Of a stretch of DNA of 45,782 nucleotides, positions 3,355-12,022 are shown one piece after another. Below the pieces are notes generated by a model. It did no database searches. It worked only from the letters and a program-made list of their open reading frames with translations, and had not been told where the DNA came from. Each line of letters opens with the position of its first letter. The first letter of the stretch is position 1. The position numbers were made by a program, and so were the translations under genes. The stretch lies in the UHGV virus genome UHGV-0242872. One strand, written 5' to 3'. This DNA is from a virus.

Positions 3355-3969
3355 ATGGCGAAGACTAAGTCAGAGATGTTTACTCTTATCGGCGCAAACC
3401 TCCCCGATAACACTACCGGGCTTATTACCCCAGCAGCGTTGCGCGAGGTAATGACACAGATGGCTGACTCACCTATTTACGCCACTCCAGGAGTTAAAGA
3501 GGTTGAAGTTCTCCGTGCCGCGTCTACGGTAACCCAAGCGCCTACCGCGGTAGATACGGCATTGCAGTTAACTTTCGGTGCAGCTCAGGGTAGTGCATCC
3601 GACCCGGTAATGATTAATGCTGCGGGGCTGGTTACATTCAACACCGCCGGTAACTACGCCGTTCGCATCAAGTTACAGGCAGGCCGCACAGGTGCCAGCG
3701 GAACGTCTATCCTGTTATCACGCATCCTTCTGAACGGTGCTCAGTACGGCTCACCTGCCGCCACGAAACTGGTAAGCGCGGACACCACAATCCCGATTGA
3801 ATCTCGCGTTGTTATTAACCCAACAGCAGGCCAGACGTTTGCCGTTCAGATTATGCGGGATAGCGTCGGAACTAACTTCGGTGGTGTATACCCGCAAGCG
3901 GCTACCGTAACCGCATGGGGTACAGCCCCGTCCGCGTTGCTGGTTATTTCGAGACTGGAGGCCGCCTGA
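3355..3969 (+). CDS. hypothetical structural protein
   Basis: 204 aa ORF, tightly packed in the structural operon. Confidence 0.5.
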   Translation: MAKTKSEMFTLIGANLPDNTTGLITPAALREVMTQMADSPIYATPGVKEVEVLRAASTVTQAPTAVDTALQLTFGAAQGSASDPVMINAAGLVTFNTAGNYAVRIKLQAGRTGASGTSILLSRILLNGAQYGSPAATKLVSADTTIPIESRVVINPTAGQTFAVQIMRDSVGTNFGGVYPQAATVTAWGTAPSALLVISRLEAA

Positions 3970-4328
3970 TGAGCACCGCTTTCAGTAAACGTATGCAAGG
4001 CGTGGGTACACGCCTGCTAACCAAATTCGGCAGCACGGTATCTCTGGTTCGTGCTGGCTCGAAAGTGTGGGATGAAGTTCTCGGTGAGTACGTCTGGTCT
4101 GCGGATGAAGTGTTGCCGTTGAAAGCGGTTCCGGTTCCGGTTAATGCTGGACTGGTAAACGGTTCGACGATTCAGGCGGCCGACATGATTGTTAAAGCCG
4201 ATTACAGCGTCGTTCCGAAGATGGAAGACAAGGTTCAGTTTAGCGGCGCGCAATGGTCTATCGTAGCTATCGAGACGAAGATGGTTAACGATGATGTCGT
4301 GGCATATTTTATTCAGGTGAGAAAATGA
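3969..4328 (+). CDS. hypothetical head-tail joining protein
   Basis: ATG 3969 overlaps upstream stop (TGATG), GGAGG SD; track ORF opens at 3915. Confidence 0.45.
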   Translation: MSTAFSKRMQGVGTRLLTKFGSTVSLVRAGSKVWDEVLGEYVWSADEVLPLKAVPVPVNAGLVNGSTIQAADMIVKADYSVVPKMEDKVQFSGAQWSIVAIETKMVNDDVVAYFIQVRK

Positions 4329-4720
4329 GTTTCGCGCTTGATGTCTCTAAGTTCGTGGAAAAGGCGAAGAAGAACCCTGAGAAGGTGATGCGTCAGGTGT
4401 CTATCAAGCTGTTTTCCGCTATTATAAAGGCGAGTCCGGTAGATACTGGTCGGTTTCGCATGAACTGGATGGCATCTGGTGGTACTCCTGCTTCCGGGAT
4501 TACGGATGCTACGGATAAATCAGGAAACACAGCAACCGGAAACGCTACAAGTTTCGTGCTGAAAGCCACCGACTGGCATGAGTTCACGCTGACAAATAAC
4601 CTGCCGTATGCACAACGGCTGGAGTATGGCTGGTCGCAACAGGCCCCGCAAGGATTCGTCAGGACTAACGTGTCCCGCTTCCAGCAACTCATTAACGAAG
4701 AAGCTAGCAAGGTGAGATGA
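4325..4720 (+). CDS. HK97 gp10-like tail component
   Basis: motifs DTGRFRMNW and NNLPYAQRLEYGWS; ATGA overlap with upstream gene. Confidence 0.5.
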   Translation: MSFALDVSKFVEKAKKNPEKVMRQVSIKLFSAIIKASPVDTGRFRMNWMASGGTPASGITDATDKSGNTATGNATSFVLKATDWHEFTLTNNLPYAQRLEYGWSQQAPQGFVRTNVSRFQQLINEEASKVR

Positions 4721-5133
4721 TGGGCTACTTTGAGGACTTAACAAAAGCGTTTGATGTGCCGCTGGTAGCCTTCGGAACCACCAACGGCATCAAGGTAGCG
4801 CTTGAAAACATCGACGCGCCGACGTCAACAGATACGCCGTATCTGGCAAGTTACATGTTGCTGGCGGATACCGAGCAGGCTGACTTATTCTTCACGGAAC
4901 AACGCGCCGGTGTCTATCAGATAGACATTAACTACGCATCGGTGAAAGGTAGCGCGCCAATCAATAAAATGGCAGACTTACTTAACACGGCGTTTAAATC
5001 AGGTAAGTCATTTTCACGTAACGACATCTGCGCCGAGGTTCAATCGGTTAGCCTGGGGCCGCTGATTGTAGAAAACGGATGGGCCAAACGACCATTGTCA
5101 ATTAACTTTATTGCATTCACCAAGAGGCTGTGA
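4717..5133 (+). CDS. hypothetical tail completion protein
   Basis: 138 aa ORF overlapping upstream stop. Confidence 0.45.
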   Translation: MMGYFEDLTKAFDVPLVAFGTTNGIKVALENIDAPTSTDTPYLASYMLLADTEQADLFFTEQRAGVYQIDINYASVKGSAPINKMADLLNTAFKSGKSFSRNDICAEVQSVSLGPLIVENGWAKRPLSINFIAFTKRL

Positions 5134-5135
5134 AT

Positions 5136-6302
5136 ATGGCTACAACTCCTTTTAAGGGCGCGAATACCGCGCAATTCTATGTGGCGGAAACTACCCCTGG
5201 CGTAACACCGACTAACCCGGTATGGTCGCCGTTGCGTAACACGGGCGGCGTTCCTGCCATTACCCGTGACACGCTGACCTCCAACGAACTGGACGGCAGC
5301 CGCGAAACTACATCCATCCGCACCGGTAACAAGCAGGTTAGCGGAGAATACGCTATTGAGCTTAGCTCTAAAAGTCAGGACGACTGGTTAGCCGGGGCTT
5401 TAGGCTCTACGTGGCAATCCGGCGTTTCCCTGTCAGGGCTATCGATTACCGTCGCACCGGCTGGCAAGACGTTCACACGTGCCACCGGCAGCTTTATCAC
5501 TGACGGAGTTGGGGTAGGCGACCTGATTGCGTTTACCGATTTAACTGGCGATAATGCAAAACCATTTATTGTTACTGCAGTAACGGCTACGGTTGTTACT
5601 GGTGCAGGCATCCAACACACCCTGACCACCGAGACAAAAACTAGTAAGGCTAAAACTGGCGACACGCTGGAAACCGGTAATACGTGTAAGACGTTCTCTA
5701 TCCTTACCTGGTACAAAGGCCAGTGCGGCGGTACTGACGCGTACACGTTAACCAAAGGCGTGGAAGTTTCTGGTTTTACCATCGAACAGGCTGTTAACGC
5801 GATGGTAACTGGCAGCTTCCCATTCATCGGTCGCAGTCAGGAGATTCTCACTACGCCGCCGACCGGTTCCAACTTCTCATCTGTTACTTTTGGTGATGAG
5901 CCGTTCTCTTCGGTTGACGTTTCCGTGTTCGACGGCTCTACGCCGTTGCGTTGCGACAGTCTGACTATCACCAACGATAACAGCGCGTCCGCGCAGTTCG
6001 AACTTGGTAACACTAACGTAGCGTTTGTTGAGCGTAGCCGCGCGGCTAACACTTTCTCCATCTCCGGCAAGCTGTACGACATGGCGATGATTCAGAAGTT
6101 TATCAACGAACAGCAGGTAGAGATTAACTCTATTCTGGCGGGGGTAAACGGGGCTATGTCTTTCAGTTTGAAACGCGCAGAGCTTACAGCAGTAACACCA
6201 GAGATTGGCGGACCCGAGTCAATCACTCAGTCCATTGAAGGCCAGGCTACTGGCAACCAGTACCAGTCGTCTATTGTTATCCAGCGTATCACCTACGCAT
6301 AA
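5136..6302 (+). CDS. putative major tail (tube) protein
   Basis: ATG 5136 with AGAGG SD (track ORF opens on GTG 5130); large Thr/Gly-rich protein followed by a strong terminator. Confidence 0.5.
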   Translation: MATTPFKGANTAQFYVAETTPGVTPTNPVWSPLRNTGGVPAITRDTLTSNELDGSRETTSIRTGNKQVSGEYAIELSSKSQDDWLAGALGSTWQSGVSLSGLSITVAPAGKTFTRATGSFITDGVGVGDLIAFTDLTGDNAKPFIVTAVTATVVTGAGIQHTLTTETKTSKAKTGDTLETGNTCKTFSILTWYKGQCGGTDAYTLTKGVEVSGFTIEQAVNAMVTGSFPFIGRSQEILTTPPTGSNFSSVTFGDEPFSSVDVSVFDGSTPLRCDSLTITNDNSASAQFELGNTNVAFVERSRAANTFSISGKLYDMAMIQKFINEQQVEINSILAGVNGAMSFSLKRAELTAVTPEIGGPESITQSIEGQATGNQYQSSIVIQRITYA

Positions 6303-6306
6303 AACT

Positions 6307-6333
6307 AAGGCCCCTTTCGGGGCCTTTTTCTTA
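6307..6333. terminator. bidirectional intrinsic terminator
   Basis: AAGGCCCC-TTTC-GGGGCCTT hairpin with U-tract; lies between convergent genes ending at 6302 (+) and 6331 (-). Confidence 0.8.
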
Positions 6334-6885
6334 CAAACCTAATTTTAAAGCAATGTCTATAACGTTCGATTTAACGTCACCCGGTATGATGTAGGTGTCG
6401 TAATCTTTTACACCACTAACATCGTACAGATAGCCACGGCTATCGCCGATGAACGTATAGCCGTCACGATGGAGGCGGACGATTCGCACGTCATGCCCCG
6501 CGGCGACGATAGGGGCAACTTCACTGGCGAATCCACCGTCGGACACTACAAAAACTTCGTCGCCGTCAGGCAAGTTTTCAGCAAGATACTTACCGAAATA
6601 ATCATCGCCGAATACCGGTTTAATGAATTGCTCAGAAACGGCAATCATTAACTGGCGGCGGGACAACCCATTAAGAAAACCCTCGGGTTTTTCTTTCCGC
6701 GCCCGGTCGTCGTAGCCGTCGAGAAATTCGTGGTAAGCATCCTGGCCTAACGCTGCCAAAGCAATATTGAACATTGGATTCTTGAAACTGGTAGTTCCTT
6801 TCGCAAAGCCCATTTCTACCAGCGCCATAGCAAGCGTGTCTTTCCCGCAACCCGCAGGGCCATTAAGAATAATTACCTTAGCCAT
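6331..6885 (-). CDS. P-loop kinase (polynucleotide 5'-kinase or dNMP kinase-like)
   Basis: Walker A GPAGCGKDT near N-terminus; 184 aa; last gene of minus-strand moron cassette. Confidence 0.6.
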   Translation of the reverse strand: MAKVIILNGPAGCGKDTLAMALVEMGFAKGTTSFKNPMFNIALAALGQDAYHEFLDGYDDRARKEKPEGFLNGLSRRQLMIAVSEQFIKPVFGDDYFGKYLAENLPDGDEVFVVSDGGFASEVAPIVAAGHDVRIVRLHRDGYTFIGDSRGYLYDVSGVKDYDTYIIPGDVKSNVIDIALKLGL

Positions 6886-7373
6886 TATTTATCGCTCCCG
6901 TGTGGTTTTAAGTGTGTAGAGTTCCCGTTACAGTCGTATTCGGTAACTGCGTGTGCGGTTATGCCGAGGTCACGGAAATGCTTTATTACCGCGGGAGAGT
7001 CGTCGAATGCGCACAAGATTCTTTCCAGTCCGAAAGCACGCAACACCTCTTCTTTAATTACGATGTCTTTTCTGTTGTCGTGTTTGCTGCGCATGATTAG
7101 CGTGTCAAACCTAACGTTATTCTCTCGTAACCATTCGCGAGTCTCCTCCTCAGCGTCATCACTTCGCCCGGTAAGGATAATTATAGTAAGTCCGGAATGC
7201 CACAGTACGCTACACAAATGGATATTGTCGTATATCGGAGCGTCATCTTTGCAGGCCATGTTAAATGGCTTCCACGCCCACGTTTCTCCGTAGTTATCTT
7301 TTGGTAACAGGTGTAAGCGATGGGTACCGTCGGCCAATGTCCCGTCTAAATCGAAAATTACAATATCTTTCAT
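6885..7373 (-). CDS. HAD-superfamily phosphatase (Pnk 3'-phosphatase-like)
   Basis: HAD motifs FDLDGTL, ILTGR, RKDIVIKEE, AFDDS. Confidence 0.65.
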   Translation of the reverse strand: MKDIVIFDLDGTLADGTHRLHLLPKDNYGETWAWKPFNMACKDDAPIYDNIHLCSVLWHSGLTIIILTGRSDDAEEETREWLRENNVRFDTLIMRSKHDNRKDIVIKEEVLRAFGLERILCAFDDSPAVIKHFRDLGITAHAVTEYDCNGNSTHLKPHGSDK

Positions 7374-8500
7374 CCCAGCATCTCCGGTGAAATAGTTAAA
7401 CGTGCGACCTCGCCATATTCGGCGCTATAAGTAATTACATTTGCACTGCGGCCCGACATCCATCCGCCGCGAGAGGCGTAGGCGTCTTTAGCCGCTAAGG
7501 TGCGGTGTTGCTCAACAATCATGTTACGGCTTTCTACAATCTTCTGGTGGTGCAGATGGCCTACGTGGGCGTAGCTGTAAACACTCTCGCCGAACGCTTT
7601 ACGGAACTTGGCAATCATAACCGGTTCGATAGCGTCGAATCGTGCTTTATGCCCGTGATGGAAGAACAGCGTCGTTTTGCCGTGTTGCACCATCTTATAA
7701 ACATCCGGCGACGTATCGACGAATACACGAGGCTCGTTGTCGTACAGTGTGCTGAACATCTCCGCCAGCCAAATCATCCCGGATTCGTCGTGGTTCCCCT
7801 GAACTATAAGCAAGCGAACAGTTTTATGCTTAACCAGAGCCATATCAACAACACGGCGGACCATGCGAATCATGTAGCGGACAAGTTTCTGGTAACGCGT
7901 GTCGGCGTCAAGGACATGACCACTCGCCGGTGTAACGGCGTCAAGACTATCGAAGTGAGCTAAGTCGCCAAGAAGATTAATAACCCCCGTACCTGCATCC
8001 GGTGCTTTCTGAAACGCAGCATCAAACCAACGAGAGAATAAGTCCTCCGCGATTTTCATATCCCAGTCGTCGCCGCTCTCGTCAGCCCAGGCTAACATAC
8101 CGAGATGGAAATCAGACACGGTGTACAGGTTAAGCAGCTTGTCGTCACGTTTAGCCCGGGCGGCCTTAACTGGCGGAACGGGAGTAATCTCCGACTTCAT
8201 GCCTTCGACTACGGCTTTCATCAACTCAACCTGACGTTCGGCATCGGTGTCTGTCTTAACCCACTGCAACTTAGTGTTACCGAACTCGTCCACCAGAGAC
8301 GACGTGCCTTTAATCTTGTAGCCGTCTGGTACAAGGTGGCTTACGTCCCGCCCGTGGCCTACGCCTTTCTTAGCCAGCTTCGCTTTACGGATTCGGATAA
8401 CGCGGTCTGAGATTCCGTATTTACGGGCGATATCGATATTCTTCATCCCGGCGTTCAATTCTTCCTGTAATTGCTCGTCGGTTATTTTCTTCTGGGCCAT
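7370..8500 (-). CDS. HTH-domain calcineurin-like metallophosphoesterase
   Basis: ATG 8500 with GAGGAAGT SD (track ORF extends to 8605); N-terminal HTH; motifs DFHLG, GDLAHFD, GNHDE, HHGH. Confidence 0.65.
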   Translation of the reverse strand: MAQKKITDEQLQEELNAGMKNIDIARKYGISDRVIRIRKAKLAKKGVGHGRDVSHLVPDGYKIKGTSSLVDEFGNTKLQWVKTDTDAERQVELMKAVVEGMKSEITPVPPVKAARAKRDDKLLNLYTVSDFHLGMLAWADESGDDWDMKIAEDLFSRWFDAAFQKAPDAGTGVINLLGDLAHFDSLDAVTPASGHVLDADTRYQKLVRYMIRMVRRVVDMALVKHKTVRLLIVQGNHDESGMIWLAEMFSTLYDNEPRVFVDTSPDVYKMVQHGKTTLFFHHGHKARFDAIEPVMIAKFRKAFGESVYSYAHVGHLHHQKIVESRNMIVEQHRTLAAKDAYASRGGWMSGRSANVITYSAEYGEVARLTISPEMLG

Positions 8501-8538
8501 GCTTACTTCCTCGTGTTTAGGATTTGTCTTATAGTAGC

Positions 8539-8730
8539 CTACTTCTCTTTCACGTTCGAGTTGCAAGCCCAGATTAAAATGAATACCCACGGCAACAGAA
8601 TCCACCCGAGAAATAAGTTAGCCATGAATATCGCCAGCTTTGCTTTATGGTTACGCATATGTGCCACCAAAAACGGGATAAAATAAACGGCTACAAAAAT
8701 AATTAAGAAGAACATAGTGATACCGGTCAT
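8539..8730 (-). CDS. small two-TM membrane protein, Imm-like (possible superinfection exclusion)
   Basis: ATG 8730 with AGGAG SD; two hydrophobic helices; C-terminal NLFLGWILLPWVFILIWA. Confidence 0.5.
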   Translation of the reverse strand: MTGITMFFLIIFVAVYFIPFLVAHMRNHKAKLAIFMANLFLGWILLPWVFILIWACNSNVKEK

Positions 8731-8772
8731 AACATAACTCCTGATTTGAGATAACATCGTTGGTGTAAGTGA

Positions 8773-8908: not shown

Positions 8909-9325
8909 ATGAAACTTTCTGATTTTTATTACGAAGCGGAAGCCGAAAAGGGCGCACGTATGCCGATACCGCTAAAAGACGGTACTGATTCCGGGGAATG
9001 GCTTAATGTTGTTTCTCCTGAGGCGGACGTTGCCGTTAAGGCTATGCGCGCGTTCACCCTTGCATACCGGGCAGTATTAGGGAAATTAAAACCGCTTCGT
9101 GATAAGTGCGAAGAGATGAAAGATTTCTCTGAATACAACCTGAAGATGGAAGACGCGGCGACGGACCTTAACCGTCAGTTAGCGATTGAATTGGTTAACG
9201 GGTGGAGCCTTGACGACGAATTCAATAAAGAGAATCTGAACACACTCCTGACGCAATATAAACGACTCGCGGAACTTGTTGTTGTGTTTCATAACGAACA
9301 ACTGCACCAGCTACAGGAAAAGTAG
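8909..9325 (+). CDS. putative tail assembly chaperone (G-like)
   Basis: 138 aa ORF immediately upstream of tape measure gene; ends EK* on the slippery sequence GGAAAAG-TAG. Confidence 0.45.
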   Translation: MKLSDFYYEAEAEKGARMPIPLKDGTDSGEWLNVVSPEADVAVKAMRAFTLAYRAVLGKLKPLRDKCEEMKDFSEYNLKMEDAATDLNRQLAIELVNGWSLDDEFNKENLNTLLTQYKRLAELVVVFHNEQLHQLQEK

Positions 9326-9690
9326 ACGCGTTGCTCCAGTTCGCCCGTTGGAACTTCATAACCCGCCACAAACGGCGGGAATTTGACAGTATCGCCGATG
9401 GGCATAAAGCCGCGCTAATTGCTATGGGGGTTATGCAAGACGCGCCGGATGCAACGCAGGCCGCTGGGCCGGAATGCCCCCCTGAGCTACTAACCACATT
9501 TGAGAAGTACAGGGAAATTAAATTCACCCGCCGAGTGGACGACGACGGCATCAAGATGTACCCGCGCGAGCAATTACGATGGTCAGATTTAGTGGCGTAC
9601 AGCACCGTTTCAGGCCAGAATATAGGGATGTTCGAATCCGACATCATCATGAGCTTAGACGCTATTTTCGAGGGTAGAAACGATGGCTGA
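9322..9690 (+). CDS. putative -1 frameshift extension of tail assembly chaperone (GT-like)
   Basis: -1 frame is open only from 9295 and runs to 9690, overlapping the tape measure start; candidate slip at A-AAG (9319-9322) before stop TAG. Confidence 0.35.
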   Translation, partial: VDALLQFARWNFITRHKRREFDSIADGHKAALIAMGVMQDAPDATQAAGPECPPELLTTFEKYREIKFTRRVDDDGIKMYPREQLRWSDLVAYSTVSGQNIGMFESDIIMSLDAIFEGRNDG

Positions 9691-12022
9691 TGTAGCTAGT
9701 TTAGTAGTAAAAGTAACAGAGCAAGGCGCGAAAGCCACATCAGACCGTCTTGACAACCTTTCAAAGTCCGCAAAAGTAGCGGGGGCCGCCGTAGCAGGCC
9801 TTGCTTCTATCGTAGCGGCTACCGCGTATAAAGCTGCCCAAGAACTGGTTGACTCACAGCGGCAACTGGACAAGATGTCCGCCAGTTTGAAGACCTTAAC
9901 AGGAAGTACCCAAGGTGCTAAACAGGCGCTAAGTATCCTGCAAGATTTTGCCCGCGATACCCCATACGGACTGGAGCAGGCGGTGGAAGGCTTCCGTAAG
10001 CTGGTGGCCCTTGGCCTTACCCCATCCGAGGAGGCGTTGCGGTCCTACGGCAATACCGCATCGGCTATGGGCAAGGACCTTAATCAGATGATTGAGGCGG
10101 TAGCCGACGCCAGTACGTTTGAGTTCGAACGCCTAAAAGAATTCGGCATCAAAGCCAAGCAGAACAAAAACGACGTAGAGTTTACATTCCAGGGGACAAC
10201 AACCGTAGTTAAGAAAAGCGCTGCCGATATTGAGCAGTATTTACTTAATATTGGTAACGTAAATTTTGCCGGTGCCATGGCGGACCAGGCCAACACCCTT
10301 AATGGCGCTATCGCGAGCGCCAGTGACTCATGGTCGCAGCTAAAAATGACGCTTGCCACCAGTCTTGATGTTGGCGCACTTGCGGAACCTATCAGGTATA
10401 TCGATGACTTGATCCAGGAATTAAATGCGTCTGTTGCTTCCGGTGAATTAGCCGCTGAAATGCAGATGTGGGGCGACATAGCGTCGGAAGTAGGAAGCGC
10501 TATCGAGATGTCATTCGACGCTGCGTTTGGCTTTGTTGGTGATGCCATCAACGGGCTTAATGAACTGTGGGATTTCAGCAGCAAGAGTATTACCGATAGC
10601 GGAGAACAAACGGCCACCACCATCGCTGAATCCGCCGCCGATGCTCTTGACTTCATCGCGGAAGAGTTCACCGCGATGGAGAGATTCTTTGAAGATATGG
10701 TTAAAGGTGCTCAGGACGCTGGCCGTCTTGTACGCGCCGCTTTTACCCCCGGGGAATCAGTAGACGTAGCTAAAAATATCAACTTCCAGCTTGGCATGGC
10801 TTTGGATACCCAGCGCGATGTCGCCGACGTTACGCGTAAAAGTTTCCGCGAACAGGTAGAAGCTCAACAGGATATTGTAGCGTTAAAACGCGCGGCGTAT
10901 GACATCGATAAGGAGTCCGCAAAAGCTGAGGGGTTAAACAAATTTAAGGTAACCGGAACCGGCGGCGGTTCTGACGATGACGGGTCAGCCGCAAAAGCCG
11001 CTAAGAAAGCAGCGGACGCGTTCGAGCGCCAGAAAAAGGCGGCGGAAGACTTCTACTATCAGTCAATCCATCTTAATGATGACGTATTTCAGAAAATAGA
11101 AGCTAACCAGGAAGAGCAACTGTCTAAGTTGCAGGATTTTTATAGCAATAAGCTTCTTAGCGACCAACAGTACGAAAACGCCAAGACGCAGATTATGCTC
11201 TCTGCCGAACAGGCCCGCCAGGAAGAACTGGACAAGAAAAGGAAAGAAGCCCAGGAGAAGCAGCAGAAAGGTGATGATTTCATGGCTCAGATTATGGGCC
11301 AGAACGCCGCTGAGCTTGAGCTTCTTAACATTCAGGAACAGCAGAAACTGTCGGTAGCAGATAAGTACCGCGAGCAGGGTTTGATTAGTGAGAAGCAGTA
11401 TCAGGCCGCGCTTAACGCCATCAACGAGCAGTACGCAACCAAGCGTGCCGACGCAACGGCAACAGCTTTCGGTAACATGGCCTCAAACATCGGGTCTGCG
11501 TTGGGCGAGGCTTCTGGCGCGTATAAGGCATTCGCTATCGTACAGGCTACTATAGCCACGTACACCGCAGCTATTGAGGCATACAAGTCAACGGCCGCTA
11601 TCCCTGTAGTTGGCCCGTTCCTGGCCCCTGTAGCCGCTGCCGCTGCCGTCGGGGCAGGTATGGCGCAGATTTCCGCTATCAGGTCAGCACGTGAACAGGG
11701 TGGACAGTTATCCGCCGGGCAGGCTTCCACCATCGCTGAACGCGGTAAACCCGAAGTTATCATGCCCGCTGGCGCATCGCGTGTGCGCACCGCGCAGCAG
11801 ATGAAAGAAATTATGGGGCAAAACGGGTCTTCTTCCGGCCCATCTAATGTTACCATTGTAAATAATACATCGAGTCAGATTGGCAACGTATCCACCGAGC
11901 AGGATGATGAAGGCCGTCTGCGTATCATCATAGAAGAGCAAGTTGCTGCATCTTTGCAGAACAGCAACAGTAAGATTAGCAAGGCCCGCAAGGCCACAAG
12001 AAACGCGCCGGGGTTTAAATAA
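9683..12022 (+). CDS. tail tape measure protein
   Basis: 779 aa, long helical low-complexity protein in canonical position. Confidence 0.85.
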   Translation: MADVASLVVKVTEQGAKATSDRLDNLSKSAKVAGAAVAGLASIVAATAYKAAQELVDSQRQLDKMSASLKTLTGSTQGAKQALSILQDFARDTPYGLEQAVEGFRKLVALGLTPSEEALRSYGNTASAMGKDLNQMIEAVADASTFEFERLKEFGIKAKQNKNDVEFTFQGTTTVVKKSAADIEQYLLNIGNVNFAGAMADQANTLNGAIASASDSWSQLKMTLATSLDVGALAEPIRYIDDLIQELNASVASGELAAEMQMWGDIASEVGSAIEMSFDAAFGFVGDAINGLNELWDFSSKSITDSGEQTATTIAESAADALDFIAEEFTAMERFFEDMVKGAQDAGRLVRAAFTPGESVDVAKNINFQLGMALDTQRDVADVTRKSFREQVEAQQDIVALKRAAYDIDKESAKAEGLNKFKVTGTGGGSDDDGSAAKAAKKAADAFERQKKAAEDFYYQSIHLNDDVFQKIEANQEEQLSKLQDFYSNKLLSDQQYENAKTQIMLSAEQARQEELDKKRKEAQEKQQKGDDFMAQIMGQNAAELELLNIQEQQKLSVADKYREQGLISEKQYQAALNAINEQYATKRADATATAFGNMASNIGSALGEASGAYKAFAIVQATIATYTAAIEAYKSTAAIPVVGPFLAPVAAAAAVGAGMAQISAIRSAREQGGQLSAGQASTIAERGKPEVIMPAGASRVRTAQQMKEIMGQNGSSSGPSNVTIVNNTSSQIGNVSTEQDDEGRLRIIIEEQVAASLQNSNSKISKARKATRNAPGFK

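Follow-up and report, generated by a model that had tools for sequence, protein, structure and literature searches.

The window analysed here is a 45,782-nucleotide stretch of viral DNA (UHGV virus genome UHGV-0242872), which is approximately 100% identical to phages SCS44 and Golestan and is a Kagunavirus (Guernseyvirinae). The region of interest is 100% identical to that of Escherichia phage vB_EcoS_SCS44 and 99.9% identical to that of VB_EcoS-Golestan, and the same locus is found in about 300-500 Escherichia and Salmonella phage records. Directly upstream of the tape measure protein (TMP) gene lie two open reading frames, 8909-9325 and 9295-9690, of which the latter is in the -1 frame and overlaps the former at its 3' end. 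The features discussed below, with the evidence for each, are as follows:

5130-6302, + strand: tail tube / major tail protein gene (PHROG 290, E 2.8e-81; orthologue annotation)
8909-9325, + strand: G, putative short tail assembly chaperone of 138 aa ending LQEK-TAG (ORF list, Pfam, PHROG)
9316-9325, + strand: candidate shift cassette G_GAA_AAG_UAG, with the core tetramer A_AAG at 9319-9322 and the zero-frame stop at 9323-9325 (sequence, conservation)
9319-9690, + strand: -1 frame segment T, KVDALLQFARW...GRNDG, stop TGA at 9688-9690 (translation, Pfam, PHROG, tblastn, codon periodicity)
9328-9333, + strand: GCG UUG (Ala-Leu in the -1 frame), a 3' context with no assigned role (third-position entropy)
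9331-9333, + strand: TTG, from which the nearest GenBank relatives begin an independent ORF of 119 aa (record annotation)
9683-12022, + strand: tape measure protein gene (ORF list, Pfam TMP_3, annotation in relatives)

The pair sits between the major tail protein gene, whose orthologues are annotated as ‘putative major tail protein’ and ‘tail tube protein’, and the TMP gene, with four opposite-strand genes intervening. These form a minus-strand cassette (6331-8757) that splits the tail module and encodes a dNMP kinase, a polynucleotide kinase/phosphatase, an SbcD-like exonuclease and a superinfection immunity protein. The tape measure ORF matches Pfam TMP_3 with an E-value of 6.3e-9, which is under the gathering score, and is called tape measure in the records of relatives; its ATG (9683) overlaps the end of the T frame, in the sequence ATGGCTGA.

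Positions 9311-9333 read ...CTA CAG GAA AAG TAG ACG CGT TG..., with the TAG at 9323-9325. AAG is codon 138 of G, and the heptamer G_GAA_AAG occupies 9316-9322. Translated from 9220, the -1 frame contains stops at 9226, 9259 and 9292, and beyond these it stays open between 9295 and the TGA at 9688-9690, with the sequence ...RTTAPATGKVDALLQFAR... or, read further, ...GKVDALLQFARW...GRNDG. The only Z_ZZN motif seen in the open overlap of the window (9295-9322) is A_AAG. The original prediction was accurate on these points: it had G ending in GAA AAG TAG, as found at 9311-9325 at the end of the 138-aa ORF (8909-9325), the -1 frame closed by stops at 9259 and 9292 and open from 9295 to 9690, and a junction reading ...QEK-VDALLQFAR..., all of which we recovered on translation.

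Both parts belong to known chaperone families. G matches Pfam Phage_TAC_4 (E 1.1e-7) and the -1 ORF matches Phage_TAC_18 (E 1.8e-18), each above the gathering score. The 259-position profile of PHROG 15027, annotated ‘tail assembly chaperone’, is matched by G over positions 1-138 (E 2.4e-50) and by the -1 frame from the AAA at 9319 over positions 138-259 (E 4.1e-51), with the junction at K138. Since G and the -1 frame meet at position 138 of a single profile, the family was built from fused proteins. Our best explanation of the locus is that G and T are the tail assembly chaperone pair of a Kagunavirus. By analogy with lambda, we would expect the tape measure protein to be coated by the G parts, with the T part recruiting the tail tube protein and the major tail protein being the presumed partner of the T domain; these predicted roles are drawn from where the genes lie and from the families to which they belong.

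Gene callers and several GenBank records treat the second ORF as a gene of its own, translated without any frameshift from the TTG at 9331 (119 aa) or, in a shorter form, from the ATG at 9424. The window itself offers some encouragement for this, as an AGGA at 9315-9318 lies 12 nt upstream of the TTG and could permit some independent initiation in the clade to which the window belongs; other records place the start of the ORF some 100 nt downstream, and the genome announcement of phage Shashou noted no canonical slippery sequence here. However, the TTG is not conserved as a start, being replaced by CTG in most clades. The first ATG, GTG or TTG in the -1 frame is typically found at +101, within a conserved I-A-M-G motif, and in Cornellvirus-like lineages it comes as late as +170, +281 or +323, leaving some clades with no start for 170-323 nt. 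The T protein is nevertheless conserved from K-V-x-A-L-Y on, even in clades without an early start codon. The tblastn alignments of the T part cover residues 1-123 with identity down to 42%, and those that extend to residue 1 of the query do so at 42-57% identity. Codon periodicity is also normal from K-V-x-A-L onwards: entropies at the three positions of -1 frame codons 3-33 after the site are 0.66/0.60/1.31, compared to 0.84/0.57/1.40 for the rest of T. Judged by this pattern, the stretch that lacks a conserved start codon evolves as -1 frame coding sequence. A separate gene would also leave the fused PHROG profile, with its junction at K138, unaccounted for, and would yield a free T without the G part, which in lambda is what binds the tape measure protein (PMC5009743). 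We therefore consider an independently initiated T gene to be very unlikely.

A related route, in which ribosomes terminate at the UAG and re-initiate on a nearby non-canonical codon of the -1 frame to give a separate T, is harder still to credit. The overlap is short, and translational coupling is common in phage structural operons, including at the ATGA of this window at 4325-4328; yet the -1 frame codons near the stop are AAA GUA NNN GCG YUG, among which there is no conserved initiation codon. The K-V residues are invariant at and upstream of any possible restart, and re-initiation would have no need for conservation of the slip tetramer at the nucleotide level.

The junction at 4322-4328 has an architecture like that of the chaperone site. 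Here the sequence is AGA AAA TGA, the ATGA overlap placing the following ORF in the -1 frame, and the two ORFs (3969-4328 and 4325-4720) match positions 1-119 and 120-250, respectively, of the fused PHROG 17193 (head closure plus tail completion). Phage fPoEco01 carries the annotation ‘Putative frameshift product’ at this place, while Shelanagig is annotated with two genes, each with a ribosome binding site. As ORF 4325-4720 possesses an ATG, with GGTGAG upstream, we take ordinary translational coupling to be the simpler explanation at 4325-4328.

Two further routes to a downstream product at the chaperone locus can be dealt with briefly. Readthrough of the stop codon is excluded because the zero frame closes 11 codons past it. 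Slippage of RNA polymerase on the A run, giving a minority of mRNAs with one A fewer or more that would encode the fusion, could draw on the four A residues at 9318-9321. For transcriptional slippage to be productive, however, a run must be about 7-9 nt long or longer, whereas the run here is just 4 nt and shrinks to 3 nt in lineages with GCA or TCA before the AAG, so we regard this route as vanishingly improbable. No promoter-like or + strand terminator-like site was found between the ORFs.

To follow the site across relatives, we assembled 16 GenBank loci and 79 IMG/VR loci, the latter retrieved with patterns far from the slip site, which together gave 81 distinct sequences with T-part identity down to 43%. 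The pattern NNA_AAG_UAR was found at the identical place in all 16 of the intact GenBank loci that were examined and, among the IMG/VR loci, in 38 of 39 distinct contexts. The unannotated GenBank record of the UNVERIFIED Salmonella phage GE_vB_M4 (MG969409.1) has a G ORF broken after 31 codons, probably by a sequencing indel. Across the 81 distinct sequences the A_AAG is invariant, and all but one have NNA_AAG_UAR, the stop falling one codon later in a single variant. In this lone exception (IMGVR_UViG_2162886012_000023, near locus position 1201) the sequence is GCA_AAG_TTA_TAG, with a Leu UUA before the stop, and the -1 frame still reads K-V-I-A-L. The codon preceding AAG is mostly GAA and is elsewhere GCA, TCA (Serratia phage Eta), AAA or GGA. 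A canonical X_XXY_YYZ heptamer, near locus position 1201, is seen only in the IMG/VR loci L070 (A_AAA_AAG, present as gcA_AAA_AAG in both L070 and L074, of the dnaX type) and L091 (G_GGA_AAG, present as caG_GGA_AAG, of the lambda type), in each case with TAG next. That canonical heptamers occur at exactly the same spot is strong evidence for a frameshift site. In many lineages the -1 frame opens merely 16 nt upstream of the stop, which leaves no room there for an alternative slip site. The 7-mer AAAGTAR is not enriched in the window (17 found compared to 12.5 expected), so the evidence lies in position and conservation, and motif counts carry no weight.

Comparison of the slip site in related phages was among the checks that the original prediction had proposed, and its outcome favours that prediction. 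The proposed -1 frameshift joining the two chaperone ORFs is supported by conservation of the site, the unconserved TTG and coding constraint that begins at the site; the proposed slip of tRNA-Lys from AAG to AAA on the terminal codon gains support from the 38 of 39 contexts and 16 of 16 GenBank loci that share A_AAG_UAR. We also concur that the heptamer G_GAA_AAG is non-canonical. The window falls outside the X_XXY_YYZ class, as re-pairing of GAA to GGA needs a G:U pair at the middle position, and it belongs instead, by its sequence, to the Z_ZZN class in the A_AAG register, with cognate re-pairing of AAG to AAA at 9319-9322. Since the upstream tRNA cannot re-pair on GCA or TCA, a slip of a single tRNA on A_AAG must suffice in the relatives that carry these codons. 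The placement is that of a ‘shifty stop’, with UAG directly following at 9323-9325 and always UAG or UAA in the 38 of 39 contexts.

The same product could be reached by a classical two-tRNA slip on G_GAA_AAG during translocation, in which P-site tRNA-Glu would shift from GAA to GGA and A-site tRNA-Lys from AAG to AAA, and with the stop kinetically idle. Several observations are in keeping with such a mechanism. GAA is invariably preceded by a G, although the codon that ends in this G is of six kinds (CAG, TCG, CTG, AAG, GCG and ATG), and the third-position entropy of the codon preceding GAA (0.75) is below that of positions 1 and 2. Where AAA or GGA replaces GAA, the base before it completes a canonical heptamer. 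Re-pairing of GAA to GGA through a G:U pair has been discussed for GGGGGAA sites (PMC10885494), and bacterial models of tetramer and heptamer slippage put the ZZN codon in the A site (PMC4066793). On the other hand, lineages with GCA_AAG and TCA_AAG keep the site though their upstream tRNA cannot re-pair, and an idle stop would leave unexplained why a stop, always UAR, directly follows AAG in 38 of the 39 contexts. On balance we see this two-tRNA route as possible, if rather unlikely.

Sites of the tetramer class are associated with a hairpin or pseudoknot 5-9 nt downstream and a Shine-Dalgarno (SD)-like element 10-14 nt upstream, and neither was found here. Downstream of the site, RNAalifold gave consensus energies of only -2.4 kcal/mol for eight representatives and -0.8 kcal/mol for 65 distinct segments spanning -45 to +30, with no covariation, and the fold of the window itself was unremarkable (z = -1.8). 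There was no conserved SD at 10-14 nt upstream, where codons -5 to -3 are variable, and no Rfam match even at E <= 10. Two candidate structures were considered and rejected. Positions 9362-9379 form a perfect 6-bp GC hairpin (CCCGCC-ACAAAC-GGCGGG) within the T frame, which is weaker in Jerseyvirus and absent elsewhere; it is specific to the clade of the window, fades in the others and lies at a distance of 39 nt from the slip. By eye, a hairpin around the site was seen, pairing a CAGC(N)GC element some 20-25 nt upstream with GCGYUG and including a change between CAAC/GUUG and CAGC/GCUG. It was dropped because the arms would be unable to pair with a ribosome on the site; it was also inconsistent across clades, and RNAalifold did not recover it.

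Without a conserved structure, SD or Rfam match, the element likely to cause pausing is the adjacent stop. Of the 81 distinct sequences, 61 have TAG after A_AAG, 20 have TAA and none has TGA, although TGA would be synonymous in the -1 frame (GUG, also Val). For comparison, the 47 long ORFs of the window end in TAA (24), TGA (18) and TAG (5). TAG and TAA each follow the same preceding codons in four contexts. Slow termination was rejected as the whole reason for the choice of stop, as the use of UAA and the absence of UGA do not fit a simple ranking by termination speed. A second constraint lies 3' of the stop, at GCG YUG (9328-9333), where third-position entropy is 0.00 at both codons among the 81 distinct relatives; conserved Ala, Leu, Gly, Pro and Arg columns elsewhere, away from the overlap with the TMP start, have values of 0.98-1.89. 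Zero is otherwise seen only at residues with a single codon, in one column consisting mostly of gaps and where T overlaps the TMP start. We found neither a structure nor any other explanation for the invariant GCG YUG. It is conceivable, though we think it doubtful, that a bare A_AAG acting with a linear signal, A_AAG_UAR_NN_GCG_YUG, gives useful shifting with no RNA structure or SD. The signal would then consist of a stop that RF1 can read, never UGA, together with six 3' nucleotides that are invariant at synonymous sites. If true, the ratio of G to G-T would be set by a 3' stimulator or termination-context element of a new kind.

Taken together, these observations make it highly probable that a -1 frameshift at this A_AAG produces a G-T fusion. 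The predicted product is join(8909..9322,9322..9690), a protein of 260 aa with the junction ...LQEK-VDALLQFAR, for which the expected Glu-C junction peptide, following Glu137, is KVDALLQFARWNFITRHKRRE. In the scheme that we propose, most ribosomes would stop at the UAG (9323-9325) and release free G of 138 aa, while a minority would back up by one base on A_AAG (9319-9322) as tRNA-Lys moves from AAG to AAA; these would then read GUA (Val) and continue to 9690 to give G-T. The slip would most likely occur after translocation, when the stop has entered the A site and the P site is occupied by tRNA-Lys bound to AAG, and competition between release-factor action and slippage would set the ratio of G to G-T. 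Our confidence in this P-site timing, with a stop in the A site, is evenly divided. In the G_GAA_AAG form of the site, re-pairing of tRNA-Glu from GAA to GGA via a G:U pair would probably help, as has been proposed for GGGGGAA chaperone sites (PMC10885494). The frames, the protein families, the conserved site, the lack of a conserved start and the coding constraint from the site on are observations, whereas we infer the synthesis and level of the fusion, the state of the ribosome when it slips and the roles as chaperones; no experimental demonstration for this phage group was found in the searchable literature.

Published work on bacterial slip sites bears on this scheme in both directions. 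No tetramer is more prone to shifting in E. coli than A_AAG, which needed a strong pseudoknot to reach 5.6%, and reporter tetramers without a stimulator hardly exceeded the background (0.147% against 0.112%; PMC4066793). AAA and AAG share a single lysine tRNA in E. coli, and A_AAG occurs naturally in the B. subtilis cdd gene and is used by IS1222 (PMC5009743). With regard to the stop, the E. coli experiments of Horsfield 1995, as described in PMC4373837, place a stop directly 3' of a -1 site in the A site before the shift, in a model of slippage at the E and P sites after translocation. By the same account a stop after the site reduced frameshifting rather than raising it, so any ‘stimulation by the stop’ at the present locus is something that we infer.

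The annotation of the locus varies among related records. Golestan, SCS44, fEg-Eco06, f18SE, VIPECOTH07 and Bas73 have two separate genes, the second starting from the TTG equivalent to 9331. In SHAK7693, fEg-Eco19, phage G AB-2017 and FSL SP-031 the start of the second ORF is 100-170 nt further downstream, and two records leave it unannotated. A joined CDS is annotated in K1ind3 (ORF22A/22B, GU196281), fPoEco01, fTaEco03 and Shelanagig, with a ‘frameshift product’ label in three of the four; the earliest relative with a joined CDS carries a 2010-series accession. The feature is thus already known, being annotated in related records and embodied in PHROG 15027. One of the records, vB_EcoM_SHAK7693 (GenBank OR594180.1), is listed under Autographiviridae; Kayfunavirus and has a name containing the ‘M’ of a myovirus, while its region is 92.8% identical to the Kagunavirus window with the same gene order; its taxonomy is probably mislabelled.

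In most records of the group, those of the closest relatives of the window included, the second chaperone ORF stands as a gene by itself whose start is arbitrary, and the value of the present comparison for annotation is that it fixes the correct product, predicted as the 260-aa join given above. As these phages include therapy candidates against E. coli and Salmonella, correct models of their tail genes are useful. The site offers a clean natural case of slippage on a tetramer or near-heptamer at the final sense codon, where no RNA stimulator can be seen, which makes it a convenient system for relating termination kinetics and 3' context to the frameshift ratio. The general picture of G/G-T frameshifting is unchanged.

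It is usual for tailed phages to make a short and a long tail assembly chaperone from one message by a -1 slip, and the organization of the locus is like that of lambda gpG/gpGT. In both, the tape measure gene is closely preceded by two overlapping ORFs, of which the second occupies the -1 frame and lacks a conserved start; the slip is near the end of the first ORF and the shifting codon is Lys AAG. The shift in lambda and other tailed phages is described as yielding an abundant short protein and a long one that is rare (Levin 1993; Xu, Hendrix and Duda 2004, both as cited in PMC5009743), with a G:GT ratio in lambda of about 30:1 (PMC5009743). There, the tape measure protein is bound by G and by the G portion of G-T, T recruits the tail tube protein and neither chaperone is present in virions (PMC5009743). 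The window differs from lambda in several respects. Its site is G_GAA_AAG rather than G_GGA_AAG, with only A_AAG as the conserved core; its slip codon is the very last sense codon, with UAG next; and between its tail tube gene and G lies an opposite-strand cassette of 2.6 kb. Its families are Phage_TAC_4 and Phage_TAC_18. Within the Guernseyvirinae, K1ind3, fPoEco01, fTaEco03 and Shelanagig, along with PHROG 15027, have the same locus with the same GGAAAAGTAG site and a joined product of 260 aa, whereas the nearest relatives of the window (SCS44, Golestan and fEg-Eco06) have two genes with a TTG start; all of these annotations are computational.

Outside the tail chaperones, the closest parallels are IS1222 (G_CGA_AAG), B. 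subtilis cdd (A_CGA_AAG) and synthetic Z_ZZN sites, in which tRNA-Lys moves from AAG to AAA, as is proposed here (PMC5009743, PMC4066793). These systems and the window have in common a host with one lysine tRNA and a 5' codon that modulates the slip and need not re-pair. For useful levels they rely on a downstream structure or an upstream SD, whereas next to the tetramer the window conserves only the stop and GCG YUG. A zero-frame stop directly after the shift codon is also found in Rous sarcoma virus as well as in barley yellow dwarf virus (PMC4373837), an arrangement that implies competition between release factor and slippage; these are heptamers with strong 3' RNA structures in eukaryotic viruses, whereas the site in the window is a bacterial tetramer or near-heptamer and has no detectable structure. 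Finally, the GGGGGAA sites of mycobacteriophages (PRFect, PMC10885494) also serve tail chaperones and are proposed to re-pair GAA to GGA through a G:U pair, as may happen here, although GAA is the last shifting codon in those sites, whereas in the window it lies upstream and AAG would be the main shifting codon.
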